The notes under the pieces are model-generated. The model had not been told where the DNA came from. It saw only the letters and a list, made by a program, of their open reading frames with translations, and did no database searches. Shown here one piece after another: positions 472 through 39,324 of a stretch of 64,000 nucleotides of DNA. Origin of the DNA: a virus (taxonomy: Duplodnaviria; Caudoviricetes). Every line of letters begins with the position of its first letter. Within the stretch, counting starts at the first letter, position 1. Made by a program: the position numbers and the translations under genes. The stretch covers positions 36,080-100,079 of the IMG/VR virus record IMGVR_UViG_3300029305_001134; one strand, given 5' to 3'.

Positions 472-620
472 GAGAGAGAATTAGGAATGACTCCAATGAC
501 GATATTAAATAAAGATATGAAAAAATTAATATTATCAGGAGACGCTGGCCTACTAGACGGTCTTTATCAGATACAGTCTAATTGAGCGGGTTCGAGTCCT
601 ACAGATACGCATTCTCTCTT
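472..620 (+). ncRNA. Putative sRNA 1 with paired ends
   Basis: Begins right after motif TTAT; AGAGAGAAT (473-481) pairs with ATTCTCTCT (611-619); TAGGA/TCCTA extends the stem; T-loop-like GGGTTCGAGTCC; no convincing RBS-ORF. Confidence 0.55.
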
Positions 621-632
621 ATTTTTCTATTT

Positions 633-665
633 GAACGAAGTGAAAACAGGTGAACTTTAGTTGAA
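633..665 (+). repeat. Second repeat GTGAGAACAGGTGAAACTTTAGTTGAA, copy 1 (others at 10294, 11341, 11827; degenerate near 2293 and 53363)
   Basis: Near-identical ~30-bp sequence between a terminator and the next TCGCG motif in four places. Confidence 0.85.
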
Positions 666-721
666 TTCGCGACCTATACATACCCTATTATGAGATAAAA
701 ACCAAAAAGGAGATGTTTAAC

Positions 722-931
722 ATGGAAGTTAAAACTAAAGGCTATGATATTGAGCAAGTAGTTGATGTAATTGAAATGTTATCATATTCACAAGGTTTTT
801 ACGGACGATTATTAGAAGAGATCCTATATATTGAGGAGAACGAACCAGCTAAGTACGAAGTATTTAAGCAAATTATCGAGAAACAGGAGTTTGAAGACCC
901 TGTGGACGTAGTGCTATTCTTCGAAGGCTAG
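722..931 (+). CDS. Cassette hypothetical protein
   Basis: AAAAGGAG RBS; motif upstream; hairpin GAGTCCTT/AAGGGCTC downstream. Confidence 0.8.
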   Translation: MEVKTKGYDIEQVVDVIEMLSYSQGFYGRLLEEILYIEENEPAKYEVFKQIIEKQEFEDPVDVVLFFEG

Positions 932-1003
932 GACGAGTCCTTAACAAGGGCTCTTCATTTTCTCTCGCGACCGAAACATTTCTTTTATGAGGAGGTGATA
1001 TGA

Positions 1004-1255
1004 ATGGTATGGTATAAATTAAAACAGGACTTTTCTAGAAAAGAAGCGAAACTAATTTTAAAGTATATGCAAGAAATTATTGACGAGTACGGCTATGTAA
1101 CTCTCGCCGATTTTTATGATCTCGTAGATGTTAGAAGAGTTGTCTACACGGATAATAAAAAACGTTGGCGTTCGTTAAATGGGGCTAGAGTATCGTTGTT
1201 TAAAGGTAAATATGGGTATAGAATAAAATTACCGGCTTTTGAGGAATTGTCATGA
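1004..1255 (+). CDS. Cassette protein carrying the YGxVTxADxYD domain, paralogous to the C-terminus of 16000..16596
   Basis: IIDEYGYVTLADFYDL vs VIETYGHVTVADMYDM. Confidence 0.75.
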   Translation: MVWYKLKQDFSRKEAKLILKYMQEIIDEYGYVTLADFYDLVDVRRVVYTDNKKRWRSLNGARVSLFKGKYGYRIKLPAFEELS

Positions 1256-1380
1256 CGTAAATCAATATCATATTGCACTAAAACAATAAGGGCTTAGGAG
1301 AAATCTTAGGCTCTTCTTTTTCTTTTCGCGCTTCCTACACTTCCTTTTATGGGAAAACATTTCGAAAGGGGACAATCAAA

Positions 1381-1701
1381 ATGGCTAGATTTAATGCGAA
1401 AGAAGAAACATGGTTGAAAGTAGAAGTCTTAGGAAAAGAAGGTTTATTTATAGATTTACGAATCGATAGAAAGACTGTTCCAGAAGGCTATCATATGTAC
1501 GAGGTAAGACACTCTGATGATGATTGGGGTGAACCTGTAGAGATAGGCGAATGGATTATGGTAAATTTCTTCGGCACGTTATTGATGAAAGAACCATTCG
1601 AATTAGAGAAATCTACTGCGGTCAATAATGCTTATTTGTGGTTAGAGAATCCAGAAGATTTTGGGTATCTTGGAGAAACTGTAGAATTTGGAGAGAGTTA
1701 A
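1381..1701 (+). CDS. LPD28-like (large polyvalent protein-associated domain) protein
   Basis: RIDRKTVPEGYHMYEVRHSDDDWGEP...VNFFGT resembles LPD28 as I recall it. Confidence 0.65.
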   Translation: MARFNAKEETWLKVEVLGKEGLFIDLRIDRKTVPEGYHMYEVRHSDDDWGEPVEIGEWIMVNFFGTLLMKEPFELEKSTAVNNAYLWLENPEDFGYLGETVEFGES

Positions 1702-1772
1702 ACATGCTCTCTTCTTTTCGCGTAAATTACTGATCCTCTTATAGAAAAACCAAAATAAAAGGAGGAAATATT

Positions 1773-2000
1773 ATGTTTGAAAATAAAATTATCAAAGGAG
1801 AGTATGCGAGTAGATATATCGCAAGCTGGATTCGAGTAGGTGGACAACTCAGATATGGTAAGGATGAAGATGATTTTAACGAATGGTTATTATCATTAGG
1901 TCTTACCGAAGATGAGGCGTACTACATTACGAATTTAGCACGATGTGGTAAACTCGAAATGCAGACACACGCACAGATGTTTTTAAAGAATAGACGTTAA
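1773..2000 (+). CDS. Cassette hypothetical protein
   Basis: GGAGG RBS, motif at 1717, downstream hairpin. Confidence 0.8.
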   Translation: MFENKIIKGEYASRYIASWIRVGGQLRYGKDEDDFNEWLLSLGLTEDEAYYITNLARCGKLEMQTHAQMFLKNRR

Positions 2001-2105
2001 TAGAATTCAAAATGGTTTGCGAGGGAGGTCTACAAAGGCTTCTCTTTTCTTTTTCGCTAAATAAACAATCTATATTATAGAAAAAACAATCAAGGAGGAA
2101 CGATT

Positions 2106-2267
2106 ATGAAAGTAGTAGTTGACAATTTTAGTTATAAGGGTAAATACTATGATAAATTTGAGTGTGAATTACCAGTATCGGATTTAAATAGTATTAGCAG
2201 TAAAGAATTATCGGCTATGTTTACCGAACAAATCGATATTTTTGAAGGAAGAAAGGAGTCTCACTAA
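2106..2267 (+). CDS. 53-aa cassette protein (not in ORF track)
   Basis: AAGGAGG RBS; MKVVVDNFSYKGKYYDKFECELP...; motif at 2053; hairpin overlaps the stop. Confidence 0.7.
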   Translation: MKVVVDNFSYKGKYYDKFECELPVSDLNSISSKELSAMFTEQIDIFEGRKESH

Positions 2268-2385
2268 TGGGGCTTCTTTTATTTTTCTGCTTGAATGAAA
2301 CGAGAACAGACGAATTGTACGGATGAGCTATTTCGCGCCTCTTACACGTCCTCTTATGAAGACAAATAGCGAAAGGATGATTGCT

Positions 2386-2610
2386 ATGTGTAAAGTGTAT
2401 GAATTCCCACAACAAACTGAGCTTCCAAAAGAAGAGGCGGAATTACTCGAAATTTTAGGCGAGGCGTATGTGAAAGCATTATACAACGCATTAGTCAAAA
2501 TGGTGGGTGGTGGAGCTTCTCGTGATGAAATGGAAGAGGTTAATGGGCTAGTACATCGAGCATTTTTGAAAGGTATGAACAAAGCGCTAGAGGAATATGA
2601 GAAGTCCTGA
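2386..2610 (+). CDS. Cassette hypothetical protein
   Basis: GAAAGGA RBS before MCKVYEFP; motif at 2332. Confidence 0.7.
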   Translation: MCKVYEFPQQTELPKEEAELLEILGEAYVKALYNALVKMVGGGASRDEMEEVNGLVHRAFLKGMNKALEEYEKS

Positions 2611-2669
2611 ACAAGGGCTTTTCTTTTTTCGCTAAATAAACACTTCGTTTTATGAGGAGGTGATTTGGA

Positions 2670-2849
2670 ATGATACAAACTGATTTCGTAAAACTCAATA
2701 ACAAAGACGAAAGATTCAGATTTTCAACAAAACTGGTATGCGTTATAAAACCGATTATTCGAGTAGTATTAACACCGATATTCTTGTTGATTAGATTATA
2801 TTGTTGGGTTTGGGATTACGATTATTACGAGATATTTTTCAAACGCTAA
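2670..2849 (+). CDS. 59-aa cassette protein (not in ORF track)
   Basis: GGAGGTG RBS; MIQTDFVKL...; motif at 2628; hairpin GGGCTC/GAGTCC downstream. Confidence 0.7.
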   Translation: MIQTDFVKLNNKDERFRFSTKLVCVIKPIIRVVLTPIFLLIRLYCWVWDYDYYEIFFKR

Positions 2850-2903
2850 AAACAATAGAACTGGGCTCATAACGAGTCCTTTTCTTTTTCTCCCCCAACC
2901 CAC

Positions 2904-3050
2904 TGGACTTTTTACCTTAAACAACCGTGTGCTGTCGAGTGAGCACCCTGATGATAAAGTCATTTCTCCGATTATATTTACTGTTGGACTTTTGACCTTA
3001 AACAACCGAGGGCTTCTCTGTACGCACTCTGTTCATAAAGTCGTTTCTCC
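2904..3050. repeat. Two tandem 66-bp att-like sites (2904-2969, 2985-3050)
   Basis: TGGACTTTT.ACCTTAAACAACCG + 26 nt + ATAAAGTC.TTTCTCC twice; GACTTT/AAAGTC inverted arms; directly downstream of the serine integrase. Confidence 0.6.
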
Positions 3051-3092
3051 AACATAAGAAAAACCCCGCCGTAGCAAGGTTTCTCAGGGTTG

Positions 3093-4943
3093 TTATATTT
3101 TCAGATGCATCACGATTTCCATGTCATCTTTGTCTGTTTTACGTCTTGTGAGCTTAGTTGTCTTCGAATATATGATTCTGTTTATGATTGATTTCAATGA
3201 CTCATTCTTTTGTGGTATACTCATATTGTCGTATTCATTTAAGCAGTCTTCCAATTTGGGGATTGCTTTTTTATATCTAATTAACTTTTCTTCCTCTTCG
3301 GTATTTTCGAATTTGGCCAGTTTACGTTCAATCGAATCAATTTCTTTTTCGATGTCGTTCTTCAACTCGATATAATCATCGTATGATATTTCTTCACGAT
3401 TTCGAGTACGTAATAAATTCTTCCGTTCAGTTTTTAATCCAGTCAATTTCTTCTCTAATTTCAAAATGGTTTTGTGCGTATCGTCTCTTTCTTTAATAAT
3501 TTCCTCTTCATAGTTATCTACATAATATTTAAAATCTTTTAATTCTTCTTTTAGCTGCCTTAATACTTCTTTCTCTAATTTCGGAAGCACGCAAGACACC
3601 ATATCGCAGTTTTGGTTACTACACATGAACGTATCTGCTCCAGGTGGTTTCTCCTCATATGTTAGTAATTGCTTATCGAATTCATCAGTCTCGATATCTA
3701 GGAAGAATTTTAACTCGAACCATTTTTCGCTGAATAAATCCGTGTAATGTAGCTTCTCAGGATCAGGTCTAAACCAATCATTTATCTTACTACGAGATAC
3801 TCCGAGAAAATCTGCTATCTGTTGACTGGTAACACCCTTCTTAGCTCTAGCTTCTCGAATTAATTGGTTGATAGCCACTTTATTAACTTTATATTTTCGT
3901 ACCCGTTTAATTTCTTTCTTTCTACGATTCTGTACCCGAACGAGTGAGTAACCGCATTTCTTACAGAACACCAAACCAGCCAAAGGATTCTTTAGTTCTC
4001 GATTCCAGCCAGTTTTGTCAGGCTTATTTTTCCGCAGTCTCTCCTGTGCCATATCCCATTTCTCTTTACTGATAATACCTTCTTGTCTACCTCGAACTAA
4101 CATATATTCTTCTGGGCTTGGTCTAAACTTGTGTAACTCTCCGTTTATAAGTTTCTTTACTACTGGTCTTTTACCCCAAGCGAGATCGCCGTAATAAACT
4201 TCATTCTTTAAAATATGTCGGACCATTTCGTCATTCCATAGTTCAGCTATACGAGGTTTTAATTCGTGCTTGTTCAAATAATTCGCTGTCTCCAGAGTAG
4301 ATAAACCATCATCAACAAAAGCTGAGAACAGAGCTTCAACGATTGGTGCTTCATTCTGGTCTTTAATTAACATGAATCCTCTATCGAGTGGCTTACGAGC
4401 ATAACCAAAAGGAGGAGTGCTACCAATCCATTTACCTTCACGTAATGATAATTGTCTACCACGACCTAATATTTCTTTTGTATATTCCAAATATTTATTA
4501 CCTTGTAGTAATTGAGCTTCGAATATTTCTTTATCAAATTTGTTATTCAAATCATATGCTTTGGTTATTGTGGCGATTATCGTATTCGTATATTTCAGAA
4601 TTTGTACAACACGACCACAGTCTAACATTTCACCACGAGATATACGCTGAGGTTCAATCACGAGTAATACAGAACCTTCTTCCTTCTCTAATCGATGAAA
4701 CACCTTCTTAATCTCAACACGATCGTCTATTGTCTCGCCAGAAACAACTTCACGATAGATATTTTCTTCAGGTATTTTCTCTCCGAATGTTTGTATAGCA
4801 TATTCTTGAAGAATCGTTTCATGTCGGGATAATACTTCTTCAACACTTTCTTTACCTTCCGCACGAGATTTCCTCAGATAGATAATTACTCGTCGTACAC
4901 TTATTTTTCCTAATTCGTATGGTGTTATGATATTTAAGCTCAT
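3093..4943 (-). CDS. Large serine recombinase (integrase) with an inserted XRE-like HTH
   Basis: YLRKS catalytic Ser, RISR motif, PPFGY recombinase domain, CKKC/CSNQNC zinc ribbon, coiled coil; AAAGGAG RBS favours the start at 4943. Confidence 0.93.
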   Translation of the reverse strand: MSLNIITPYELGKISVRRVIIYLRKSRAEGKESVEEVLSRHETILQEYAIQTFGEKIPEENIYREVVSGETIDDRVEIKKVFHRLEKEEGSVLLVIEPQRISRGEMLDCGRVVQILKYTNTIIATITKAYDLNNKFDKEIFEAQLLQGNKYLEYTKEILGRGRQLSLREGKWIGSTPPFGYARKPLDRGFMLIKDQNEAPIVEALFSAFVDDGLSTLETANYLNKHELKPRIAELWNDEMVRHILKNEVYYGDLAWGKRPVVKKLINGELHKFRPSPEEYMLVRGRQEGIISKEKWDMAQERLRKNKPDKTGWNRELKNPLAGLVFCKKCGYSLVRVQNRRKKEIKRVRKYKVNKVAINQLIREARAKKGVTSQQIADFLGVSRSKINDWFRPDPEKLHYTDLFSEKWFELKFFLDIETDEFDKQLLTYEEKPPGADTFMCSNQNCDMVSCVLPKLEKEVLRQLKEELKDFKYYVDNYEEEIIKERDDTHKTILKLEKKLTGLKTERKNLLRTRNREEISYDDYIELKNDIEKEIDSIERKLAKFENTEEEEKLIRYKKAIPKLEDCLNEYDNMSIPQKNESLKSIINRIIYSKTTKLTRRKTDKDDMEIVMHLKI

Positions 4944-5214
4944 GGAAAAATTTACTCCTTTTCTTAGATGACTTTTTATATTACGCTTCAAATAGTAAAC
5001 TTTCATAATTTGCTGAATACTTACATATCTTTCATCGAGGTGGTTAAAAACATGAAAATTACAGTTGTCAGAAACGAACCAACGAAGGAAGTCCTTCAAA
5101 ATATTTATGACGTAATGAACAGAAATATTAAAAATCCAAAATGTTTTTATACGTCAGAAGAAACTAAAAAATTAAAGAAGGACAAATCCAACGTGTGGCT
5201 GTAATGGCTGCGCG

Positions 5215-5598
5215 TTATTTTTTAATTTGCTCTCTGACTGATAAGTATAATTTCATGATATTTTCGTATAGGTCTTGTTTCTCTTCTAATGATACTTTGT
5301 CATTTTCAAATATTAGTCTAGCTCGTTCTAATAAATCTACAGTTTCTATTTCATCGGTTTTACATCCAAGTGTCTCGATTGAAACGTTAAAATAATCTGC
5401 GAGTATCTTTATTTGATGGATATTTAAGTTCCTTTTACCTGTCTCTAGATTTGATACTTGTCCTCTCGATAACGGTCTTCCTGTTGCTCTATTTCCTAAA
5501 ACTATTCCTAACTCATCTTGTGTTATATTTCTCATTTTTCTTAATTGTCTCACCCGACCACCTATTTCTTTTGTATCGAGCGTCTTTTGAATTTGCAT
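5215..5598 (-). CDS. XRE-family repressor, no peptidase domain
   Basis: IGGRVRQLRKMRNITQDELG...VSNLETGKRN...LADYFNVS. Confidence 0.88.
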   Translation of the reverse strand: MQIQKTLDTKEIGGRVRQLRKMRNITQDELGIVLGNRATGRPLSRGQVSNLETGKRNLNIHQIKILADYFNVSIETLGCKTDEIETVDLLERARLIFENDKVSLEEKQDLYENIMKLYLSVREQIKK

Positions 5599-5694
5599 CG
5601 GATATCACTTTCCTTTCTTATAATAAAGTACATGTTTCATTCTACACAAAAATATTCAAATAGCAAACTTTTTAGTTCGAAATTTAAAAACTTA

Positions 5695-5754
5695 TTTACA
5701 AATTCTAAAAATTATATTAAGATAGCAATGTAAACACGTATGGAACATACGTTC
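5695..5754 (+). promoter_or_regulatory. sigma-A-type promoter with downstream LexA (SOS) box
   Basis: TTTACA-17-TAAGAT (5695-5723); GAACATACGTTC (5743-5754) fits the Firmicutes GAAC-N4-GTTC box. Confidence 0.6.
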
Positions 5755-5782
5755 TAATCTTAATCGATAGGAGTGAACCGCT

Positions 5783-5959
5783 GTGGATGGTGTAGCGAAG
5801 GTTATTGACGAATTGGGATTGATGATTTTACAGAAAGATATTGAGCTTGAATTAAAACAAAATGAGATCGATAAATTAAAAAGAAAGATAGAAATGATTG
5901 AACAATACTTAGACATGTACGAGGATAATTGCAACTACGATTTCGCATTAAAACGATAA
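5783..5959 (+). CDS. 58-aa coiled-coil protein (not in ORF track)
   Basis: AGGAGTG RBS, GTG start, MDGVAKVIDELGLMILQKDIELELK... Confidence 0.65.
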   Translation: MDGVAKVIDELGLMILQKDIELELKQNEIDKLKRKIEMIEQYLDMYEDNCNYDFALKR

Positions 5960-6053
5960 TACATATACATACTTAATCTAATCATTCCCTTGCCCCGGTA
6001 CTTATGGTTAGATACTTTTTTAAACATAGTGCGTCAAATAGTAAACTAATGAG

Positions 6054-6278
6054 GTGAAAAGTTTGCATAGAAGAAAGAAATTAGTGTTTTGGAGAATAGA
6101 ACGACGAATGAGACAGAGGGATTTGTGTGAGAGGTTAGGAATCACTACAGCTCATTACTCGAATATCGAACGAGGTATATCAGATCCGTCTTATGTTTTA
6201 TTAATGAAATTTCGAGAGTTATACGATGGTGATGTTTTAGATTTGTTTGAAAAGGAGAATTCAAAATGGCAACAGTAA
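6054..6278 (+). CDS. Cro-like XRE HTH regulator
   Basis: RMRQRDLCERLGITTAHYSNIERG; divergent from the repressor. Confidence 0.85.
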   Translation: MKSLHRRKKLVFWRIERRMRQRDLCERLGITTAHYSNIERGISDPSYVLLMKFRELYDGDVLDLFEKENSKWQQ

Positions 6279-6685: not shown

Positions 6686-6725
6686 CATCTCCTTTTATGA
6701 AAATATATTTAAAGGAGGAATACTT

Positions 6726-6977
6726 ATGTTAGTATTAGGATTTTTGGGATATTTAGTAATTGGATACGCGAGCTTATTCGTGGTTGTGATGATCCACATA
6801 ATTAAAGCTGAAAAAGCAGGTTATGATTGTCTAAATTGGTGGGGTAAACATACCGCCAATATTGGAAATCAAATCGATGACAACTTTATCATTGGATTGA
6901 TTATCTGGCCGGTACGATTAATGCAATTCATTATTGATATTCCGGAATATTATGAACAGTATGGCTTTAAATATTAA
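6726..6977 (+). CDS. Cassette membrane protein
   Basis: GGAGG RBS; hydrophobic helices. Confidence 0.75.
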   Translation: MLVLGFLGYLVIGYASLFVVVMIHIIKAEKAGYDCLNWWGKHTANIGNQIDDNFIIGLIIWPVRLMQFIIDIPEYYEQYGFKY

Positions 6978-9347: not shown

Positions 9348-9416
9348 GAGATTAGGGGCTTAACGGCTCCTTTTCTTTTTCTACGAATGATACGCGAAAT
9401 ATACAACGAATATTAT

Positions 9417-9695
9417 AGAAAGAAAGCATATCGAGAGAGGGAGACCGGCTCTACATTCAGTAGTGAAGAGTACGAACTATACAAACCGAGGCTCGAATCG
9501 AAAGATTGACAGTAATGGTCCAGAGGACGAATGGTCGTAGTGAATATCGGAGGCTGATATGCTATATATACTGATAACAATGTCGGAGATTTTGATATTA
9601 TAAGTATCGACGGCAGGCAAATGGTGCGCTGACTTGGGAGCAGTCTTTATGATCGATCCCTGGGAAAATTGGAACATTGTGTTTTATTTTTTCTT
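9417..9695 (+). ncRNA. Putative ~280-nt structured RNA (sRNA 2)
   Basis: Between motifs 9392 and 9697; no RBS-ORF; AGCATATCG (9425)/TGATATGCT (9555) stem; ATC-GAAA-GAT tetraloop hairpin; more GC-rich than flanks. Confidence 0.6.
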
Positions 9696-9742
9696 TTTCG
9701 CATAATATACAGCCTCTCTTATAGAAAAGATTATAGGAGGAT

Positions 9743-11067: not shown

Positions 11068-12330
11068 ATGAAGAAAGCATTATTATTTGTAACAGGAGCA
11101 GGTATTGGAGCAGTGACAGGATTTGTAGGAGCTGTAGTATGCTTACTCATTGGAGTTGCAGGAGAGGATAAAGTACTCTATGAAGACGACAAAATGAGAA
11201 TTAGAGCAGCAACTGATAGTACTGAAGCTGAAACAGGTTTTGCCGTGGTTACATATAAAAAGCAAACAACAGAAACCAACGAATAATATTCGGGGATTGA
11301 GGATTCATTACGAGTCCTCTTTCTTTCTGCTCGAATCCCATGAGAACAGGTGAAACTTTAGTTGAGCATTCGCGAAAAATACAGGACCTATTATAGAAAA
11401 TAACGGAAAATAAAATATGAAAGGAGAAAATTATCATGATGGAATTATTGAAAGTATTTGTTAACGTATGGTTTTTAGGCGGAGACATGTATAACAATAA
11501 TGATTATGGTGTTAGATTCTAATAAGAATTTGGCGTTATTAATCGAAAAGGCGAGTCTTAACTAAGGCTCTTCCTTTTACTTTCCATCATGATTCGCGAT
11601 ATTTACACGCTCCTTTATGAAATAATATTTAAGGAGGATAAAATATGATTATGTTTATGATTTTATTATTAATAGCAGGAGTTATACTGGCAATGTTTAG
11701 TGTGGTGGCAATCTTACTAATCGAGCCAATTGTATGTTTCCTGATTATCTATGGAATCTACAGATTGATCAAATTTATTAGAAAGAAACATTAACGAGAG
11801 GGGCTTAGGCTTCTCTTTTCTATTTAAACGAAGTGAGAACAGGTGAAACTTTAGTTGAACATTCGCGACTAATACAGCCTCTTTTGTGAAGAGAAAAGGA
11901 GGTAATTAGACATGAAAATCATAATGAATATACTAGTGACGATATTGGCGTTAGGGTTATTAGGATTGGCGTTGATTATCGCGTGTATATGCGTATTAGC
12001 ATTTTAAGATTATCGAATGGACAAATCGGATTGGGAGGATTGAATTATGATCCTCTTAGTCTTCATATTCGCGAAGAATACATACCCTTTAATGAAAGAT
12101 AAATCAAAATAAAACTAATTTAGGAGGAATTTATTATGTTGGAAATGATTGTATTAGGATTAACAATCGTAATTGGAATGGTGTTAGCTAGTTTAGCAAT
12201 GTTGGTGATAACATTCAAAATTATGCTTAGCAAGAAATGGATGTTATGGTTTGTTAAGAAATACATGAAAATGATTAATGAAATCACCGAAGAAGTGACA
12301 GAAGATTTATTAAAAGTTGAGGCTGAGTAA
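11068..12330 (+). CDS. Run of five single-gene cassettes, mostly hydrophobic peptides (11068-11286, 11436-11522, 11645-11794, 11912-12007, 12136-12330)
   Basis: Each has its own motif, GGAG(G) RBS and downstream hairpin. Confidence 0.7.
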
Positions 12331-12388: not shown

Positions 12389-12540
12389 GAAAGAAAACTA
12401 ATATTCGAAAGGGCAGTGAAGTTGGAGGGCCGAAGATTGTCGGTACCGCATCGGGCACGTCGCTGAGGTGAAAACCTGACAAATGAGCGTGAGCAAAATA
12501 ACGGCGTCCTTCGAGTAGAACAATCCTAGAGTTTTCTTTT
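12389..12540 (+). ncRNA. Putative ~150-nt structured RNA (sRNA 3)
   Basis: AAAGAAAACT (12390)/AGTTTTCTTT (12530) perfect 10-bp closing stem; TATTCGAAAGGGC/GTCCTTCGAGTA inner stem; AGGT-GAAA-ACCT hairpin. Confidence 0.7.
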
Positions 12541-12599: not shown

Positions 12600-12683
12600 A
12601 TGGCATTTATGATTATACCAGCATTGGTTATGACATTATGTGTATACGAATCCGTAATGGGTTGTATTACAAATTTAAGATAG
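12600..12683 (+). CDS. 27-aa hydrophobic peptide
   Basis: GGAGG/AAGGA RBS; own motif (12544) and hairpin. Confidence 0.55.
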   Translation: MAFMIIPALVMTLCVYESVMGCITNLR

Positions 12684-12748
12684 GGACAAATTATAAGTCT
12701 CTATTTTTCTTTTAATTCCATATTCGCGAAATTTACAAGTCCTTTTAT

Positions 12749-12843
12749 GAGAGAAAGATAAGGTAACTATTACCTAGAATGATCGCATTTTAAGAGCTGA
12801 GAAAAATGGGAATTGGCGGTAGCTTCATTCGTATCATTCTCTT
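12749..12843 (+). ncRNA. Putative ~95-nt RNA or structured leader (sRNA 4)
   Basis: GAGAGAAAGATA/TATCATTCTCTT closing stem; AGGTAA-CTA-TTACCT hairpin; GAATGA/TCATTC stem. Confidence 0.55.
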
Positions 12844-12889: not shown

Positions 12890-13675
12890 ATGAATGGCCT
12901 AGTTAATAGCGTCAAAATATTTGGTAAACGTAATGCATCAACAATTCTTACAGTGGTAGGAGGCGTTGGCGTGTTAATTACTTCTATCATGGCAGTGAAA
13001 GCGACACCTAAAGCTATGACGATATTAGAACAAGCGAAGGATGAGAAAGGTGAAGAGTTAACTAAATTTGAGAAATTCAAAATGGCGGGTCCTAGTTATA
13101 TTCCAGCTACAATCGTAGGTATTGGGACGGTTACTTGTATATTCGGAGCTAACGTACTAAATAAACGTCAACAAGCAGCTCTAGTTAGTGCGTATACATT
13201 AGTAGATAGCTCCTACAAACAATATCGCCATAAATTAGTTGAATTATACGGTAAAGATACACATAATGAAATCGTGGACGCCATCGCCGTAGAAAAAGCT
13301 GAAGAAGTTGGGATTTATGCTGAAAGTCTATGTGCGAATACTTGTCTAACTGACGAAGAATCTTGCGGAGAACCAGTTTTGTTCTATGACGAATTCGGTG
13401 GAAGATATTTTGAGTCGACTATCGAACAAGTTATCGCGGCTGAGTATCATACAAATCGCAATTTTACACTACGTGGGTACGCAGTATTAAACGAACTATA
13501 CGAATTTCTCGGTTTAGAACCTACTGATTATGGTAATACAGTTGGCTGGGCTGTAGATAGCGACCTATATTGGATCGATTTCAATCATAGGAAGACTGTA
13601 CTTGAAGATGGACTCGAATGTTATATTCTAGAGTCTTACTGGTCTCCAAGTGCTGACTTTTTAGAATATTATTAA
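12890..13675 (+). CDS. DUF6353-like phage protein, paralog 1
   Basis: AVKATPKA...YIP...LNELYEFLGL...GW pattern shared with 14002 and 19123. Confidence 0.7.
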   Translation: MNGLVNSVKIFGKRNASTILTVVGGVGVLITSIMAVKATPKAMTILEQAKDEKGEELTKFEKFKMAGPSYIPATIVGIGTVTCIFGANVLNKRQQAALVSAYTLVDSSYKQYRHKLVELYGKDTHNEIVDAIAVEKAEEVGIYAESLCANTCLTDEESCGEPVLFYDEFGGRYFESTIEQVIAAEYHTNRNFTLRGYAVLNELYEFLGLEPTDYGNTVGWAVDSDLYWIDFNHRKTVLEDGLECYILESYWSPSADFLEYY

Positions 13676-14001: not shown

Positions 14002-14787
14002 ATGAATATGTCAAACGTAACTAAAGTATTAAAAACAATCGGAACTGGATTAAATAAACACAAGCCAGCGATTCTTACAGGCATGGGTATTGCTGCGGGT
14101 GTAACATCCACAGTATTAGCAGTTAAAGCCACACCAGATGCTATGGAATCTATCAAAATGGCAGAAGAAGAAAAAGGCGAAAAATTGACTAAAATGGAAG
14201 TTGTAAAAGTAACTTGGAAACATTATATCCCAGCGATTGCTACAGGGGTTACAGCGGGTGTATGTGTTGTTGGTGCTAATGCTGTTCATAATAAACGTAG
14301 TGCCGCTTTAGCAACTGCATGTCAGATTTCTGCGACAGCCCTTAACGAATACAAAGAGAAAACTATCGAGACTGTAGGTGAAGAAGCCGAGAAACAGATT
14401 CGTGAGAAAATTGTTAAGGATAGAAAAGATAAAGTTGAGAAAAAAACAGCGAGTGAGAATCATACTGTATTCGTTTCGGAAGATGGCGAATATACAATTC
14501 GTGAACCTTATTCCAATCAGACTTTTAGATCATCCGAAGAAAAAGTAATAAAAATCATGAATAATCTCAACGGACGAATGATCGATGGAGCTGAAATGTA
14601 TATGTCCGTAAATGAATTACTCGATGAATTCGGTTTGGACCATTACGAGTTGGGTGATGATATCGGATGGACCGTAAATGATCGAATTGATTTAATGATT
14701 GATGTAGAGAAATCAAAAACAGGCAAACCACGAGCTGTTATCAGATATTTGAACCCAGCAAAACATGATTTCAGAAAATTACACTAA
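14002..14787 (+). CDS. DUF6353-like phage protein, paralog 2
   Basis: AVKATPDA...YIPA...GW. Confidence 0.7.
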   Translation: MNMSNVTKVLKTIGTGLNKHKPAILTGMGIAAGVTSTVLAVKATPDAMESIKMAEEEKGEKLTKMEVVKVTWKHYIPAIATGVTAGVCVVGANAVHNKRSAALATACQISATALNEYKEKTIETVGEEAEKQIREKIVKDRKDKVEKKTASENHTVFVSEDGEYTIREPYSNQTFRSSEEKVIKIMNNLNGRMIDGAEMYMSVNELLDEFGLDHYELGDDIGWTVNDRIDLMIDVEKSKTGKPRAVIRYLNPAKHDFRKLH

Positions 14788-19122: not shown

Positions 19123-20079
19123 ATGACAAAAGTAGAATTAATGAATAAAGCAAGTAGAGCTATGCATAAAGTAGCTTTCAAATTTAAAAAACACAGCCCT
19201 GAAATTATGATTGTGACAGGTGTTGTTGGTGTTGTAACAAGTGCGGTAATGGCTTGTAAAGCTACTACTAAACTTAGTGAAATTATGGAAGAAGCAAATA
19301 ATCAGATTGACGAAATCAAATACGCGATGGAACATCCTGAAACCGTGCCAGCAACTTCCAAAGGAGAATATACAGAAGAAGCTGGTAAGCATGATTTGAC
19401 TATCACTTATGCGAAAACAGGATTTGAATTGTTTAAACTCTACGCTCCAGCTGTAGGTGTAGGCATTGCTTCTATTACTATGATTCTTGCAGGTCACAAT
19501 ATTACTCGTAAGCGTTTGGCGGTTTCTACAGCAGCTTATACAGCACTCGATACAGCATTCAAAGATTATCGTGGACGTTTGATCGAACGATTCGGTAAAG
19601 ATTTGGACAAAGAATTACGATACAACTTAAAAACAAAAGAAGTAGAAGAAGTAATCGTGAATGAAGATGGCTCTGAGACTATCGTTAAGAAAACAGTCGA
19701 GGAAGTTGACAATCCATTGGCATTGTACAGCGATTATGCTAAATTCTTTGACGCTAGCTGCCCAGATTTCGAAAAAGACCCAGAACTTAACTTTATGTTC
19801 TTACGTGCTCAGGAACGTTATGCGAATGAACAGTTAAAACGTAAAGGTTATATGTTTTTGAATGATGTATACGAATTAGTTGGTATTCCACGTACAAAAG
19901 CAGGGCAGTTCGTTGGTTGGATTTACGACGATAAAAATCCAGAACATGACGGTGATAATTTCATCGATTTCGGTATTACAGACAGAACTAAAGAAGGTAG
20001 TCGTTTGTTTGTTAACGGTCGCGAAAGTGTTATTCTGTTAGACTTCAACGTTGACGGACCTATCGTTGATTTAATCTGA
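19123..20079 (+). CDS. DUF6353-like phage protein, paralog 3
   Basis: ACKATTK...FLNDVYELVGIPRTKAGQFVGW...LDFNVDG. Confidence 0.7.
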   Translation: MTKVELMNKASRAMHKVAFKFKKHSPEIMIVTGVVGVVTSAVMACKATTKLSEIMEEANNQIDEIKYAMEHPETVPATSKGEYTEEAGKHDLTITYAKTGFELFKLYAPAVGVGIASITMILAGHNITRKRLAVSTAAYTALDTAFKDYRGRLIERFGKDLDKELRYNLKTKEVEEVIVNEDGSETIVKKTVEEVDNPLALYSDYAKFFDASCPDFEKDPELNFMFLRAQERYANEQLKRKGYMFLNDVYELVGIPRTKAGQFVGWIYDDKNPEHDGDNFIDFGITDRTKEGSRLFVNGRESVILLDFNVDGPIVDLI

Positions 20080-27421: not shown

Positions 27422-27712
27422 TTATGAGAAGATTTATTGTATATTTAGTTCGTAAGAGATTAGGAGTTAAGAAGTTCCAGAACTTTAGATTCACTAATCA
27501 GAAAGATAAAGCCGTGTATTACTTCACCAACTACGAATTAAAGAAAGTCGAATATATTGGCGAGGGTGACAATATGCAGGAACGAGTTTCCTATTCAAAC
27601 GCGAGTCTTAATTGGCTTATTAACGATGACTGCAAAGTCGAAATCGTAGAATCAACTCGCGAGTAAAACACGTTATATTATGAGAGATAACTAAATATCT
27701 GGAGGGATTGTC

Positions 27713-27835
27713 ATGAACAAAAATATGTTTAAAGAAATGATTGATCATCCGATTGCAACATTCTTTGTAGTAGGAGTGTTGGTGGATGGAGTATCAATTC
27801 TGGCGCATAACTTAGCGAATGTATTCCGAAAGTAG
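27713..27835 (+). CDS. 40-aa TM cassette peptide (not in ORF track)
   Basis: GGAGG RBS; motif at 27657; hairpin GGGCTCGGC/GCTGGGTCC. Confidence 0.65.
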   Translation: MNKNMFKEMIDHPIATFFVVGVLVDGVSILAHNLANVFRK

Positions 27836-33497: not shown

Positions 33498-34062
33498 ATG
33501 GGAAAGAAATACGAATTTACAGGGGAAACAACAAAGTTATTTTGGAATAACATTACACAGAATCAAAGCTGTTGTAAAAATTGAGCTTAGCTGGAAAACT
33601 GTTGAAATCGGTGAGCTTGGAGGATGGATCGAGAAAGAAACCAACTTATCACATGAGGGTAATGCTTGGGTCTGTGGTAATGCTAAGGTCTATGGTAATG
33701 CTTGGGTCTATGGTAATGCTGAGGTCTGTGGCAATGCTAGGGTCTATGGTAATGCTGAGGTCTGTGGCAATGCTAGGGTCTATGGCAATGCTAGGGTCTA
33801 TGGCAATGCTTGGGTCTATGACAATGCTGAGGTCCTTCGAACAGAACATTATATGGTATTTGGGCCAGCCGGAAGTAGAAATTCGTTTACAACATTCTAT
33901 CGAAATAAACAGCATGGAATTTCAGTTAAATGCGGATGTTTTGACGGAACAATTGATGAATTTGTCGCAAAAGTCGAACAAACGCATGGCGAATCTAAAC
34001 ACGCTAAGGTGTATAAGTTAGCAGTTGAATTAGCAAAAGAACAGATTAAATTGGAAGATTGA
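33498..34062 (+). pseudogene. Hexapeptide (GNAxVy) repeat beta-helix protein with an apparent +1 frameshift near 33540
   Basis: RBS + MGKKYEFTGET is in a different frame from FGITLHRIKA...LGGWIE; 18-bp tandem repeats at ~33658-33835. Confidence 0.6.
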
Positions 34063-34086
34063 TATTTTAGTAAAGGAGAAAGAATT

Positions 34087-34332
34087 ATGAAGAAAAGATT
34101 ATTAGTTATTGGTTTATTGTGTGGAGTTTTATTAACAGGTTGCGGAAATCATGCATTATTTGACACAGTTTATACTTTCGATAAGGCAATCATTAATCTC
34201 GGAAATGGTGAAGTTATCGAAGTTGATGTTAAGTCATGGGAAGATTACGAAGGTGAACAGCTCCAGATCATTGCCGAGGATGGAACTGTATATTTGACTA
34301 GCTCTTATAATTGTACGCTGATTAGGGAGTGA
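34087..34332 (+). CDS. Lipoprotein
   Basis: LLTGC lipobox. Confidence 0.75.
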   Translation: MKKRLLVIGLLCGVLLTGCGNHALFDTVYTFDKAIINLGNGEVIEVDVKSWEDYEGEQLQIIAEDGTVYLTSSYNCTLIRE

Positions 34333-34648
34333 TAGATATGAAACTATTATTATTTATATTATGGGCTATAGTTGGATGTCTTGTGATGTCTCAAAACCAA
34401 ATAGCGCATGCTCAATATGGTTTATTATTGTTTACATATTTGATAAAATTGCTTTGCGATTATATACGTGAGGGGTGACAATGGAATGAAAATTATATTT
34501 GATAACGAAAAACAAAAGGAAACTTTTATCAAAACCTGTTGTCCTTGCGATTTCGATAGAGAATACCCTGGATATAATTGTGACGATTGTGAATCTTCGA
34601 TGAATTGTGAGAAATGTTTCGAGAAATACATAGAAATGGAGGTTAAAC

Positions 34649-35113
34649 ATGATTGATATTTGTAAAATTGTAGGAAGTATTGAATTCGATAAAAAGACTT
34701 TAGATGTATATTCGTCGCTCGATGAACCTTTATTTAGAGCATCTGACGTGGCGGTTCTTATCGATTATAGTGCTAATAACGTGTGGAAAATGCTCGAAGC
34801 TTGTGAACAGGACGAAAAGCTGATACTACCAGTAGTAGTTGGAGGTCAGAGAAGAAATGTTTGCTTTGTTGATGAACGAGGACTGTACAATATTTTAGCT
34901 CAGAGCCGTAAACCAATCGCTAGAAAATGGAGACGAGTTATCTTTGACCAGCTTATTCGTATGAGAGTTGATCGTGATATGGATATTTCCGAGCAGTTTG
35001 AAGAATGGGATCACGCTCTGGATGATATTTATTGGGATGAAGAATTAGGTATGTTGATGCAGTCGGTTACCGTAGCGGGTGGAGATGTAGAGCAAATACC
35101 GTTTGAAGGGTAG
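34649..35113 (+). CDS. BRO-N domain protein
   Basis: EPLFRASDVA...GGQRR..FVDERGLY...SRKPIA. Confidence 0.85.
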   Translation: MIDICKIVGSIEFDKKTLDVYSSLDEPLFRASDVAVLIDYSANNVWKMLEACEQDEKLILPVVVGGQRRNVCFVDERGLYNILAQSRKPIARKWRRVIFDQLIRMRVDRDMDISEQFEEWDHALDDIYWDEELGMLMQSVTVAGGDVEQIPFEG

Positions 35114-35583
35114 GAGGAATAATAATGAAAGTAGAATGTAATTTCAAAGATAAGTGTTATACTGCTAGAACAAATCCTAAAAAGTGTGAAAAATGCAGTC
35201 ATAATACAATGCGAAATTATATAGAAGATTATTTTATTGAAGCCAAAGATAACCCAATACCAGATAAATGTCCTAAATTGACATACAATGGTCCTGCCGA
35301 ACAAACCAGCGGTTATAAATGTCCTGTGTGTGGAGGTTTTACCAATCCTTACGCGATGCGTGATAATTTATGTGGGTGTTGCGGATATCGATTGAACGTT
35401 TGATAGGAGGAAGAAGAATGAAAATTATATTTGATGATGAAAAAGAAAAAGACCTATTCGTACGAAAATTATGTCCACTTGACGTATTGAATGAAGCTGA
35501 TGAGATTTGTTATGCGTACGAAGGCTCTCCTGATAAATGTGAAGAATGCTGGGAGAAGAATATTGGGATGGAGGTAAAGAAAG

Positions 35584-36576
35584 ATGTTGAAGATTGAAAA
35601 TGCTGAAGTGGTAGGTTTTAATCCTGCGATTAGAGGTATGAGGAATCCGAAGAACAGCCACGATAGAATGGATAGTAAAGAGTGTATTGATAACTGTGAT
35701 GACTGTGATAATTTCTCAATCTGCAATACAAATTACGCACCGTATTTCAGGAATTTTTGGGTTGGCGGGCCTATCGATAATAATTATGCTATCGGTCCAA
35801 ACGATCACAGACTCATGACATCACTCGCTAAAGGTGGACCGGTTCATGCGAAATATCGAAGAATGATTGTTGTATATCTTGACATTACAGCCCCTTTATA
35901 TTGGTGGAAAGAATTCGATACATATAAGTTAGGTACAGTAGCGAATAGTTGTTCCACAATGCATAAGATTCATGCTAAAGAATTTGAATTAAGTGATTTT
36001 TCTATAGATAGAATGACTTCTGCACGTGCTACTCAGCTCATGTTAGACACTGTTGATGAACTTAACGAACAGCGTAAATTACATAATAACACCTCAGATT
36101 CTAGAATCAAGAAAGTACACTTCAATAATATGATTCAGCTCCTTCCTTCCTCTTACAATCAGAAAAGAACCGTTATGTTAAACTACGAGGTTCTCCACAA
36201 TATTTATTTCTCCCGCAAAGACCATAAGCTGACCGAGTGGCATACCCTCTGCGATTGGATTGAAACCCTCCCTTATTCAGAACTCATTACAACCCCAATG
36301 AAAAATTCCAATATCGAAATTGAAGATGCTATTAAAGTTCTCCAGGATGCTGGATTTATAGTTGTAAAAGAAGATAAAGCAGAAGATGTATTTGACGACG
36401 ATGAAGTTATAAATATCAACGTTGTATTTGATCCAGCTTGTGAGGGTTGCAAATATACATCCGGTGCTACACTTAAAGAACATATCAGTATTTGTGGTAA
36501 GTGTTATAGAGTAATGACCGAAAAATACAAACATCTAGGTACGGACAACTACACCCCACAGGAGGACACCAAATAA
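35584..36576 (+). CDS. ThyX-like flavin-dependent thymidylate synthase homolog
   Basis: APLYWWKEFDTYK, SCSTMH, LLPSSY, RKDHKLTEW; located in the nucleotide metabolism block. Confidence 0.55.
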   Translation: MLKIENAEVVGFNPAIRGMRNPKNSHDRMDSKECIDNCDDCDNFSICNTNYAPYFRNFWVGGPIDNNYAIGPNDHRLMTSLAKGGPVHAKYRRMIVVYLDITAPLYWWKEFDTYKLGTVANSCSTMHKIHAKEFELSDFSIDRMTSARATQLMLDTVDELNEQRKLHNNTSDSRIKKVHFNNMIQLLPSSYNQKRTVMLNYEVLHNIYFSRKDHKLTEWHTLCDWIETLPYSELITTPMKNSNIEIEDAIKVLQDAGFIVVKEDKAEDVFDDDEVININVVFDPACEGCKYTSGATLKEHISICGKCYRVMTEKYKHLGTDNYTPQEDTK

Positions 36577-37136
36577 TGCGATATCACAATATTACGACTG
36601 ACAATTTACTCAACGGCGATGGACTTAGAGTCGTATTATGGGTGGCTGGTTGTGAGCATCATTGTAAAAATTGCCAGAACCCAATTACATGGAATCCTGA
36701 AGGTGGAATAGAATTCGACACAAAATCCCTCCACGAATTGTATGGATATTTAGAGAAACCTTATATCGATGGGATTACTTTCTCAGGAGGAGATCCACTG
36801 CATCCAGATAACAGAGACTATATTTTCGCTTTGGCTGAAATCGTAAAAAGAAAGTATAAGAAAACTGTTTGGCTGTATACAGGTTACGAATGGGAAGAAA
36901 TAGTGAAGTTCATACATAAAGATTTACTTAAACGAATTGATATTCTCGTAGATGGTAAATTCGTAGAGGAATTGAAAGATGTTACTTATCACTGGGCTGG
37001 TAGCACAAATCAGCGAGTAATTGATGTACAAAAATCGTTGGAAACCGGTGAAGTAGTATTACATAAAAACCCAGAAATGTACGATAAGGATTACCATTTC
37101 GAACTTAGTAACTATAATTGCGGATGTGATAGTTAA
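36576..37136 (+). CDS. nrdG: Anaerobic ribonucleotide reductase activase
   Basis: NGDGLR, CEHHCKNC radical SAM motif, SGGDP, GSTNQRVID. Confidence 0.92.
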   Translation: MRYHNITTDNLLNGDGLRVVLWVAGCEHHCKNCQNPITWNPEGGIEFDTKSLHELYGYLEKPYIDGITFSGGDPLHPDNRDYIFALAEIVKRKYKKTVWLYTGYEWEEIVKFIHKDLLKRIDILVDGKFVEELKDVTYHWAGSTNQRVIDVQKSLETGEVVLHKNPEMYDKDYHFELSNYNCGCDS

Positions 37137-37181
37137 GGTCGCGCAAAAAACATTCTTTATTATAGAAAGGATGGTGATTAT

Positions 37182-37457
37182 ATGACAATTGAAGAATTTA
37201 CGAAGGTATATTATCCAGCGAAATATGAACTTGAAAGATACGCGCTCGAAAAACTTTGTCATGATGTATGCGGAAGAAAGAATGTAACTATTCGCAATGT
37301 CTTATTAAGAGGAGGTATTACGAGTATTAGCAAACTCTATGAAACTAGTGATGAAGATTTATTAAAGTTGCGTAATGTCGGTTCAATTAATCTGGAGTTA
37401 ATACACAAAATGAAAGATCGGATAAGACATAACTTAGAGAAAGGGTCTCAGTATTGA
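37182..37457 (+). CDS. Cassette protein resembling RNA polymerase alpha C-terminal domain
   Basis: RNVLLRGGITSISKL...DEDLLKLRNVG vs RpoA NCLKRAGI.TV.DL...EEDL.K.RNLG. Confidence 0.7.
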   Translation: MTIEEFTKVYYPAKYELERYALEKLCHDVCGRKNVTIRNVLLRGGITSISKLYETSDEDLLKLRNVGSINLELIHKMKDRIRHNLEKGSQY

Positions 37458-38080
37458 GGCTCTTCTTTTTATTTCAAGAAAGGAATAACACATATGTCAA
37501 CAAGAGCAGAATTAAGAAGAGCTCAAAAACAAGATAAGAAAGCTAAGACGGCTACTTATAATTTCACACAAGCCCAGTTAGATGCGGTTATTAAAGAATA
37601 CTTAGACAAATATATCGATCAAATTCAGGAGGCGGCTGCTCACGATGCTATGGGTAGCGCTCTTGAACTTATGCTTTATATTCCTATGAAAACTTTAATG
37701 GAGCATTACTGGCCGAAAACATACGAAAAGAAATTACCAGACTTCACAAAACACATGCTCGAATATTACAACCAGTGGGAAAATAACGAGTTTGATATGG
37801 ACGAGATGAGACAGGTTTTGTGGGATACTTGTGGATTTAAGATTGAGAAAGATGAGGGCTCCGATGAGAAAACTAGTTGAGTATTTTAGATCTGTATTTT
37901 GCAAACATGAATATGAGTTATTGGATAAATCGGAAGTGTATGCTGTAAGCGACATTGGAAGAGTTACAAATGAAGGTATACCGGTCTATAGACAATGGAC
38001 TTATATGTGCAAGAAATGCGGTTATGTGAAGATCGTAAGAACTAATCAAAAATAAAAGGAGAAATAAAAGGAGAAATAAA

Positions 38081-38419
38081 ATGAGATTAACAATGAACGA
38101 ATATCAGAAATTAGCAGCAAGAACTATTAATGAAAAATTAACACCTCGTAAAATGGAAGACCACGCAAAATGTGGAATGGTTGGTGAGATTGGAGAGATT
38201 AATAGTATCTATCAGAAAGTGTATCAGGAACATCCAATCGATTATTATCACATTAAAAAAGAACTTGGTGATTTGCTTTGGTTTATCGCTGAGTACTGTA
38301 CTGCTATGAATTGGGAATTAGGTGATGTAGCTCAGATGAACATCGATAAATTACGAGCTAGATATCCTGAAGGTTTTGAGACGGAAAGAAGCTTACATAG
38401 AGCAGAAGGAGATATTTAA
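38081..38419 (+). CDS. MazG-like NTP pyrophosphohydrolase
   Basis: EYQKLAART, GEIGE, ELGDLLW, NIDKLRARYP. Confidence 0.9.
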   Translation: MRLTMNEYQKLAARTINEKLTPRKMEDHAKCGMVGEIGEINSIYQKVYQEHPIDYYHIKKELGDLLWFIAEYCTAMNWELGDVAQMNIDKLRARYPEGFETERSLHRAEGDI

Positions 38420-39221
38420 GATATGTATGACGTATTAATAGGTTTAGGAATTGCACTCGCTATATTCACATATTTGGGTATCGGATTAGCACTCAGTATA
38501 TTTATTGACGCCGATGAGCTAGAAACGATTGTGCTATATCTCGTATGGCCGCTGTATGTGACTTTGGTATTGTTTATCTTATTCTTCTACGGCTGCTATC
38601 GAATGGGTGTGTTTGTCAAATCGAGAGTTTACCGTAGACAAAGATATTTAGAAAGGAGGAGAAAACAGAAAACGAAATGAAAAAGTGTTGCGAGAATTGT
38701 TACTTTGGCGAATTGATATTTAAGAGGTTTGGTTTTTATCGTTGTAAACCAACTAATAAAATTCGTCGTGGTAACAAGAAAAGAAGGTGTCCATTATTTT
38801 GGGCGGAATATAGTTTATAAGGAGAACGGGGTTAGATGAACAAAGTATGTAAAGTGAAACCGACGAGATGTCCTATTTGTATTGCTGCTGATAAAAATTA
38901 CGATATGAGTTACGACTGCGAGAAATGTAAAGAAAACAACGTAGTCTACGAATTGATATCTGTTGGACATACCGATTTAGATGGCGATTGGGCGATGGTT
39001 CTGAAAGATGGTATTATTCGTAGAGTTGAATTAAGTAGGGTTTGGGATGTGAAAGAATTCTTCGGGCATTGTACTAGTGGATATTTACAACCGTTACATA
39101 GTGATTTTAGAATTCCAGAATGTGTTACGACAACAGCAAGTACTCAGCGATAAACCTATAATGATCGACGGTGTAACTGGAAAAATCAAATGATATTCGC
39201 GTAAAATACATGATCTATTAT

Positions 39222-39324
39222 GAAAGAAAGAGAAAATAACTGAAATGAAACTGGCAACAGTGGACAAGTTAAAATGTAAGATGTGAGCGACAGTGACGAC
39301 CCAGACTCACACTCTCTTTCTTTT
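39222..39324 (+). ncRNA. Putative ~100-nt RNA (sRNA 5)
   Basis: AAAGAAAGAGA (39223)/TCTCTTTCTTT (39313) perfect 11-bp closing stem; ACTG-GCAA-CAGT tetraloop; GTGAG/CTCAC stem. Confidence 0.7.

Follow-up and report, generated by a model that had tools for sequence, protein, structure and literature searches.

Promoter cassettes of the window and five units without a gene

The window analyzed here is a stretch of 64,000 nucleotides (nt), bases 36080-100079 of the 100,079-bp virus record IMGVR_UViG_3300029305_001134, and the phage that it comes from is a gut siphophage of the FP_oengus type. Pfam identifies among its genes a large serine recombinase, three DUF6353 genes, replication genes, an RNA ligase and a 1026-amino-acid (aa) protein flanked by helix-turn-helix (HTH) domains; the left arm of the genome, outside the window, encodes the terminase, the portal and a protease-capsid fusion. 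About 30 copies of the promoter motif TTCGCG-N5-(T/A)ACA-N7-TTAT occur in the window, on the plus strand only, compared with a mean of 7 in shuffled sequence, and the observed number was reached in 0 of 100 shuffles. Most copies are followed, within 20-45 nt, by a Shine-Dalgarno (SD) sequence and a start codon; before the next copy stands a hairpin with a U/C-rich tail. Five of these promoter cassettes, which we call units 1 to 5, are the subject of this work; they are predicted to fold into RNAs whose 5' and 3' ends pair with each other. The units and the promoter copies before them, located by motif scans, are as follows.

446..471, plus strand: promoter copy before unit 1, TTCGCG-N5-TACg-N7-TTAT
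472..620, plus strand: unit 1, predicted 149-nt RNA, with a T arm at 586-602 and a U-rich tail at 621-628
9391..9416, plus strand: promoter copy before unit 5, with one mismatch
9417..9698, plus strand: unit 5, 282 nt, with a weak closing helix
12363..12388, plus strand: promoter copy before unit 2
12389..12540, plus strand: unit 2, short-form member of a structured RNA family, core at 12402-12518
12723..12748, plus strand: promoter copy before unit 3
12749..12843, plus strand: unit 3, 95-nt closed RNA module, probable 5' leader of the first DUF6353 gene (from its fold and comparison with loci L332-L335)
39196..39221, plus strand: promoter copy before unit 4
39222..39324, plus strand: unit 4, predicted 103-nt closed RNA with a GCAA tetraloop

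End pairing and coding content of the five units

RNAfold joins the two ends of each unit in a closing helix. In unit 1, bases 472-481 pair with 611-620 (10 bp); in unit 2, 12389-12399 pair with 12530-12540 (11 bp); in unit 3, 12749-12755 and 12757-12760 pair with 12832-12835 and 12837-12843 (7+4 bp); and in unit 4, 39222-39233 pair with 39313-39324 (12 bp). The helix of unit 5 consists of 9 bp (9418-9426 with 9689-9697) and begins at +2. These folds reproduce the coordinates and the 9-12-bp end helices from the first base after TTAT that the original prediction had given for units 1-4, and also its description of the unit at 9417 as similar but more weakly paired at its ends. GNRA tetraloops had been reported for several units, and three units have one: GGU-GAAA-ACC in unit 2, CUG-GCAA-CAG in unit 4 and AUC-GAAA-GAU in unit 5.

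The specificity of the pairing was assessed in a cross-matrix of all 5' ends against all 3' ends. The cognate duplex was clearly the best for unit 1 (-16.5 kcal/mol), unit 2 (-11.3 kcal/mol) and unit 4 (-14.4 kcal/mol), marginal for unit 3 (-10.7 kcal/mol) and not the best for unit 5 (-8.3 kcal/mol), which thus shows no cognate advantage. Duplexes between non-cognate ends already have energies of -3 to -14 kcal/mol, because all 5' ends are purine runs and all 3' ends are pyrimidine runs. In the ORF-bearing cassettes of the same genome (ORF, open reading frame), the ends pair at just -2 to -8 kcal/mol, and the coding cassettes end in a local GC hairpin followed by a U/C tail. The five units have no local hairpin beside the tail, and the helix at the tail is formed with the first bases of the transcript. 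In units 1 and 3, an unpaired U tract comes directly after this stable helix.

Within about 70 nt of +1, an SD sequence placed 5-10 nt from a start codon is found in 76% of the cassettes and in none of the five units. The claim that the units have no ORF with a ribosome-binding site (RBS) holds without qualification for units 2 and 4, which are clean of such frames. It has to be qualified for the other three. In unit 5, GGAGG-N5-ATG opens a frame of 14 hydrophobic codons (MLYILITMSEILIL) at 9559-9603, 142 nt from +1; unit 1 contains a 32-codon ORF at 487 with a poor, unspaced SD; and unit 3 is enclosed by the longest frame of the first DUF6353 gene, the true start of which is placed at 12890 by the position of the SD, the onset of the Pfam match and independent gene calls on identical contigs.

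The interiors of the units are unrelated to one another by BLAST, as had been claimed, with the exception of a 23-nt motif common to unit 5 and a long-form relative of unit 2 in locus L040. No protein-level relative of any unit was detected by tblastx beyond hits due to the RNA similarity of unit 2. ARAGORN found 0 transfer RNA (tRNA) genes in the window. The comparison with Rfam that had been proposed as a check gave 0 matches for the five units, and indeed for the whole window, with the 4227 models of Rfam 15 at gathering thresholds; in a permissive search of the five units, the best E-value was 0.55, and the tRNA model RF00005 did not match even at E up to 10. There are no tandem repeats in or near the units. 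Searches of GenBank phages by megablast and blastn gave no match, and contigs retrieved through identical proteins showed 100% identity across units 2, 3 and 4.

Closed cassettes without an ORF in related phages

The same type of cassette was analyzed in a set of 410 distinct promoter cassettes from 109 loci of related phages (labelled below by L-numbers and G001; L318 is FP_oengus, NC_047916.1). A cassette was counted as ORF-less when no ORF with an SD (SD-ORF) was present within 120 nt of +1, and as coding when an SD-ORF was present within 70 nt; 69 of the 410 cassettes belong to the former group and 315 to the latter. End pairing was measured as the best duplex of the first 14 nt with the following 30-330 nt. 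The median of the best 5'-end duplex was -12.6 kcal/mol in ORF-less cassettes vs. -7.7 kcal/mol in coding ones (Mann-Whitney p=6e-17). Within the ORF-less group, the cognate duplex gave -11.9 kcal/mol and duplexes with the downstream regions of other ORF-less cassettes -8.7 kcal/mol (Wilcoxon p=7e-11). The helix begins at +1 in 47 of 51 strong ORF-less cases, and a T-rich tail follows it in 41 of the 51 closed units. Closed units are 46-301 nt long, most often 80-90 nt, and 23 of the 51 precede a gene that has no promoter.

The payloads of these cassettes in the relatives are tRNA-like genes, RNAs with only a T arm, mini-hairpins, the family of unit 2 and other recurrent families. Promoter-driven tRNA-like genes without CCA occur in L041, L067, L161, L030, L038, L055, L116 and other loci. 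Several of them have anticodon loops of abnormal size or the stop-reading anticodons CUA or UUA, and the phage genes are read normally in genetic code 11. The end pairing of the tRNA-like members corresponds to an extended acceptor stem. In an Rfam scan of 13 loci that hold other ORF-less families, tRNAs were the sole matches, one of them reaching the tRNA threshold. At least six other ORF-less RNA families recur, each in at least two phages and none matched by Rfam; the groups are L060/L127/L098/L072, L033/L048, L117/L034/L125, L115/L056, L046/L117 and L026/L334 (3719-3822).

The cultured phage FP_oengus shares this organization. Its promoter variant is ACGCGAAAA-N-ACA-N7-CTTTATGG, and positions 2490-2634 of NC_047916.1 contain a promoter of the same type with a closed ORF-less cassette (2515-2634) that is about 120 nt long and lacks an annotation. 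At 27684-27765, the promoter is followed by a bare hairpin that begins at +1 (27709-27755) and by a U tail, before an endonuclease gene. End-paired ORF-less cassettes are therefore a real, recurrent and widespread feature of this phage group. The original prediction had grouped the five units as a class of phage small RNAs; the recurrence in relatives bears this out, firmly for unit 2, but the five units do not form one class, since units 3 and 4 resemble leaders and unit 5 is doubtful.

Unit 2 and its RNA family

Homologs of unit 2 were found in virus contigs and in metagenomes. The short form, with a core of about 115 nt, is present in the window, L273, L240 and L253, and the long form, which has extra hairpins, in L110, L201, L236, L161, L197, L040 and L226. 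The conserved core comprises GGCAGUGAAGU, AUCGGG, GGCUGA, AUGAGC and AAAUA-CG-CGUC. A covariance model of 118 positions, R1, was built from four short forms and finds both forms. Unit 2 scores 111 bits and the relatives 55-138 bits; the model is narrow, missing L040 and giving L226 just 19.5 bits.

The fitted alignment comprises 15 distinct sequences; 95.6% of its cells are paired and 12 of 32 pairs show compensatory change, figures that are somewhat generous because an alignment fitted to the model favours the structure. None of 500 shuffles reached the observed values, and with slid partners 38-49% of the cells were paired. Compensatory changes are visible also in plain MAFFT alignments, so that the covariation across related phages that had been named as a check was found for this unit.

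Unit 2 and its counterpart in L334 are 95.5% identical, compared with 76.5% for the upstream ORF, 65% for the next cassette, which carries a micro-ORF, and 82% for the DUF6353 genes. The high identity amid flanks of 65-82% indicates that unit 2 is conserved and selected. Among five related phages of about 100 kb, unit 2 is the only one of the five units that is conserved. These sequence comparisons assign unit 2 to a new family of conserved structured RNAs that is absent from Rfam.

The micro-ORF of the neighbouring cassette, at 12600-12683 of the window, has 27 hydrophobic codons, a strong SD and a promoter cassette of its own; its DNA is about 65% identical in L334, and gene callers did not annotate it on the identical contigs.

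Units 3 and 4 and the genes behind them

Units 3 and 4 each stand before a gene.

12890..13675, plus strand: first DUF6353 gene (Pfam), 261 aa, without a promoter of its own, presumably expressed through unit 3 only
39360..40667, plus strand: RNA ligase gene (Pfam PF09414), directly downstream of unit 4

No promoter lies between unit 3 and DUF6353 or between unit 4 and the RNA ligase. The closest relatives retain the frame of unit 3: the start GAGAGAAAGAT, the end ATCnTTCTCTTTTT and an untranslated region with CCGAAAGGTG, so that the conserved frame amounts to the first 11 nt, the last 11 nt and the tail. The interior is 33% identical to that of L334 and is not conserved even where the neighbouring protein is 82-89% identical. 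In L334 the same slot is filled by a complete tRNA-like cloverleaf and in L332 by a truncated tRNA-like module; L335 has a tRNA-like module whose T arm is canonical, and L333 a different RNA of 140 nt. In G001, an RNA of the unit 2 type stands directly ahead of DUF6353. The swaps among L332-L335, together with the G001 case, indicate that the slot before DUF6353 takes interchangeable RNA modules.

DUF6353 genes occur as three paralogs per phage, with an N-terminal membrane helix; those of the window are at 12890-13675, 14002-14787 and 19123-20079. A DUF6353 gene stands behind at least 8 closed units, whereas none of the 315 coding cassettes begins with one (Fisher p=9e-8). By tblastn, 73 DUF6353 genes have a promoter within 400 nt: 25 are preceded by an ORF-less leader, 45 have a small ORF in between and 3 follow the promoter directly. 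Besides the window, loci with this overall pattern are L038, L047, L058, L124, L240, L046 and L110. The predicted fold of DUF6353 is poor (predicted local distance difference test, pLDDT, 60), Foldseek returned nothing at E below 0.5, and a literature search on DUF6353 returned no paper.

On the minus strand of L240, three consecutive ORF-less cassettes, at 1256, 1421 and 1599 in reverse-complement coordinates, lie directly upstream of DUF6353; they contain an unknown 127-nt RNA, a member of the unit 2 family and a tRNA-like module, in this order. This arrangement suggests an RNA islet at the DUF6353 position of that genome.

For unit 4, no homolog was found, and an exact-word scan matched one unrelated GC-rich contig by chance. 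RNA ligase homologs at 37 loci in other phages have neither the promoter nor a unit 4 leader, and the closest ligase relative found is 79% identical. The position of units 3 and 4 suggests that they are more likely 5' leaders than standalone RNAs.

Units 1 and 5

Unit 1, alone among the five in having a T arm, shows a canonical T loop, and a stretch of 19 nt recurs without mismatch in the T arm of a tRNA-like gene from two other phages; such a 19-mer match in an exact-word scan is near the chance expectation for a collection of this size, and the rest of the unit is unmatched. No homolog of the whole unit was found. We read unit 1 as a lineage-specific RNA with what looks like a tRNA-type T arm.

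Every measure gives a weak result for unit 5, which is doubtful. With filters off, it gave a weak match to model R1 (12.7 bits, E 0.12), the second-best in 40 kb. It may be related to unit 2 and have decayed, or be a cassette that has decayed or encodes the 14-aa micro-peptide.

Promoter, start site and candidate polymerase

A stricter form of the promoter motif is present in at least 117 virus contigs. The reading of the motif as a sigma-70 promoter was rejected on inspection: the distance from the TTCGCG or TTTACA box to the TATTAT-like box is 14 or 7 nt. Of the 410 cassettes, 367 have G and 43 have A directly after TTAT; the purine share at positions +1 to +4 is at least 97%. Transcription starting directly after TTAT would fit both the helices that begin at +1 (47 of 51) and the purine at +1 (410 of 410). 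The argument of the original prediction, that the position of the stems places +1 right after TTAT, is thus in keeping with the larger set, which suggests the same start.

A conserved element of about 25 nt, TGA(A/G)AACAGGTGAA(A)CTTTAGTTGA, occurs at 641-664 and 11342-11366 of the window, each time immediately before a promoter copy, and a similar GACTTTAGTCGAAC lies ahead of a promoter in L334 (3680-3693). This element could be an operator or a cassette junction.

One gene of the window is a candidate for the enzyme that uses this promoter.

60581..63661, plus strand: 1026-aa protein with HTH domains at both ends (Pfam) and RYP and GADFDGD motifs, candidate single-chain RNA polymerase

Its copies in the five related ~100-kb phages are 60-74% identical, and it shares 46% identity with the 'putative RNA polymerase' (gp55) of FP_oengus. 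The HTH-flanked protein also occurs in Lactococcus phages and in about 230 actinophages, and an HTH-flanked DxDGD protein has been described as the signature gene of a phage group that spans Firmicutes and Actinobacteria (bioRxiv 10.1101/842583). No sequence relative was found for it among solved structures, and the literature searched contained no described promoter for the putative single-chain polymerase. The HTH-flanked DxDGD protein at 60581-63661 probably reads the promoter.

Proposed explanation and alternatives

We think it rather probable that the five units are ordinary cassettes of the phage's promoter that carry a folded RNA instead of an RBS and an ORF. The promoter would force transcripts to start with a purine run, and in ORF-less cassettes the U/C-rich tail would be matched to that start, the first base of the RNA pairing with the sequence just before, or within, the tail. 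Because the promoter would impose the purine start, a pyrimidine tail could act both as stop signal and as pairing partner. The closing helix would thus take the place of the local GC hairpin of coding cassettes as terminator stem, and it would also hide both RNA ends from exonucleases, so that stable short RNAs could result. In Firmicutes, a 5' helix that begins at +1 protects RNA against attack by 5' exonucleases. Under this proposal, unit 2 would be a trans-acting structured RNA, and units 3 and 4 would yield a short closed RNA and allow just read-through into the promoter-less DUF6353 and RNA ligase genes.

Several points weigh against this explanation. The fold z-scores relative to shuffles are modest (-1.9, -2.3, -1.5, -2.9 and -0.3 for units 1-5). 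The U-rich tract of units 2, 4 and 5 is part of the closing helix and does not come after it, which is non-canonical for an intrinsic terminator. Homologs of the interiors of units 1, 3, 4 and 5, on which covariation could be based, were not found, and the covariation figures of unit 2 are subject to the bias described above. The start site, the RNA ends and expression itself are read from the DNA, and stopping of the putative polymerase at a hairpin followed by U is an assumption. Finally, an efficient terminator would silence DUF6353 and the ligase unless there is read-through or an unseen promoter.

It is possible, though less likely than not, that the modules act only in cis, as attenuators that throttle or time the downstream gene, notably the membrane-anchored DUF6353; the short RNA would then be a by-product with a drifting interior. 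Such a role would suit units 3 and 4, which precede promoter-less genes, and the finding that DUF6353 follows a promoter directly in just 3 of 73 cases. It would also suit unit 3, whose frame and tail are conserved around a divergent interior, and the bare hairpin with a U tail before the endonuclease gene of FP_oengus. However, the next promoter stands directly behind units 1, 2 and 5, which therefore have no downstream target in cis, the interior of unit 2 is the best conserved stretch of its neighbourhood, and the interiors in relatives are elaborate tRNA-like folds rather than simple hairpins. A different kind of payload, which we regard as unlikely, would be tRNA mimics or other decoys, or spare parts, directed against host defences that cut tRNAs or sense phage RNA, with the slot before DUF6353 as a site of an arms race; this reading is close to the decoy, sponge or anti-defence roles that the original prediction had put forward. 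The same frame in relatives does hold tRNA-like genes without CCA, with odd anticodon loops and suppressor-type anticodons, one of which reaches the Rfam tRNA threshold in the 13 loci scanned. Unit 1 has its T arm, the modules in the unit 3 slot are swapped between close relatives, an RNA ligase gene lies behind unit 4, and the countering of a retron defence by phage tRNAs is documented (bioRxiv 10.1101/2023.03.15.532788). Yet units 2, 3, 4 and 5 are not tRNA-like, some of the cassette tRNAs have ordinary anticodons ending in A or U and may just serve translation of an AT-rich genome, and the ligase looks like a recent, lineage-specific acquisition.

The end pairing might instead be a product of composition in cassettes that have decayed or that encode micro-peptides, above all unit 5 and perhaps unit 1, and this, too, seems to us unlikely. 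Non-cognate ends already pair, and unit 5 combines a z-score near zero and the lack of cognate advantage with a well-placed SD and a hydrophobic ORF. The 22-32-codon ORF of unit 1 begins like a lipoprotein-like gene in L334, micro-ORFs do exist in the phage, such as the 27-aa one at 12600-12683, and units 1 and 5 were not found in close relatives. Against this reading stand the clear cognate advantage of units 1, 2 and 4 and the excess of cognate over non-cognate pairing in the class (p=7e-11); the SD of the unit 1 ORF is weak and unspaced, and tblastx gave no protein-level relatives except through the RNA similarity of unit 2. A more far-reaching reading, which we consider quite improbable, is that the cassette is a plug-in frame for swapped payloads (tRNA mimics, the unit 2 family and at least five other recurrent families), with a preferred site upstream of the first DUF6353 gene. 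The payloads would be trans-acting effectors, for instance decoys or sponges against tRNA-targeting or RNA-sensing host defences or, for unit 2, a new ribozyme, and DUF6353 would be functionally tied to them.

Significance and comparison with known systems

Phage non-coding RNAs have been little explored. In this gut phage group, represented by at least 109 loci and the cultured Faecalibacterium phage FP_oengus, about one-sixth of the promoter cassettes carry a folded RNA and no gene. New are one RNA family backed by covariation, several others that recur, and an unexplained association of the uncharacterised DUF6353 proteins with RNA modules. The rule that the helix starts with the transcript gives a testable prediction of the start site of a putative single-chain polymerase, and since FP_oengus and its host, Faecalibacterium prausnitzii, can be cultivated, the predictions can be checked directly.

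The units share traits with several known systems. The tRNA clusters of phages, such as the species 1 and 2 RNAs of T4 and the tRNA region of T5, encode small stable RNAs. Like these, the units would give short, stable phage RNAs without an ORF early in infection, with ends paired in the fashion of an acceptor stem; unit 1 has a T arm, and the cassette frame of relatives holds tRNAs and their look-alikes. In contrast, neither ARAGORN nor Rfam identifies any of the five units as a tRNA, no CCA is encoded, and each unit is a cassette for a single RNA with its own promoter and tail, not part of a processed polycistron. The helix and U-rich tract at the end of a unit recall intrinsic terminators, whose classical local form is used by the coding cassettes, but in the units it is the very start of the transcript that closes the hairpin, with 70-260 nt enclosed, and the polymerase is probably not the host enzyme.

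The unit 2 family resembles the Rfam orphan RNAs ROOL, GOLLD and HEARO in its multiple helices, GNRA loops and invariant joining strands and in being carried by phages. It differs in being far smaller (115-250 nt), in always standing behind one phage promoter and in having no match in Rfam 15 even at E up to 10. Type III toxin-antitoxin systems (ToxIN) are laid out as promoter, RNA, terminator and protein gene, and units 3 and 4 show a similar order of promoter, structured RNA, U-rich stop and promoter-less gene. In contrast to ToxIN, the units are free of tandem repeats, the downstream genes are DUF6353 and an RNA ligase rather than RNases of the ToxN type, and the RNA module of unit 3 is swapped between close relatives while the protein stays.

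YrlA and the pRNA of phi29 are stable RNAs with paired 5' and 3' ends, and YrlA has a tRNA-like T arm. There is no sequence or structural match of the units to either RNA, and the phage is not phi29-like. With regard to YrlA, the Ro60/TROVE protein (PF05731) is absent from the phage genome in a search whose controls were positive, and no Rfam Y RNA model matched. The terminal end-pairing helix, however, is a feature that the units have in common with both YrlA and the phi29 pRNA.

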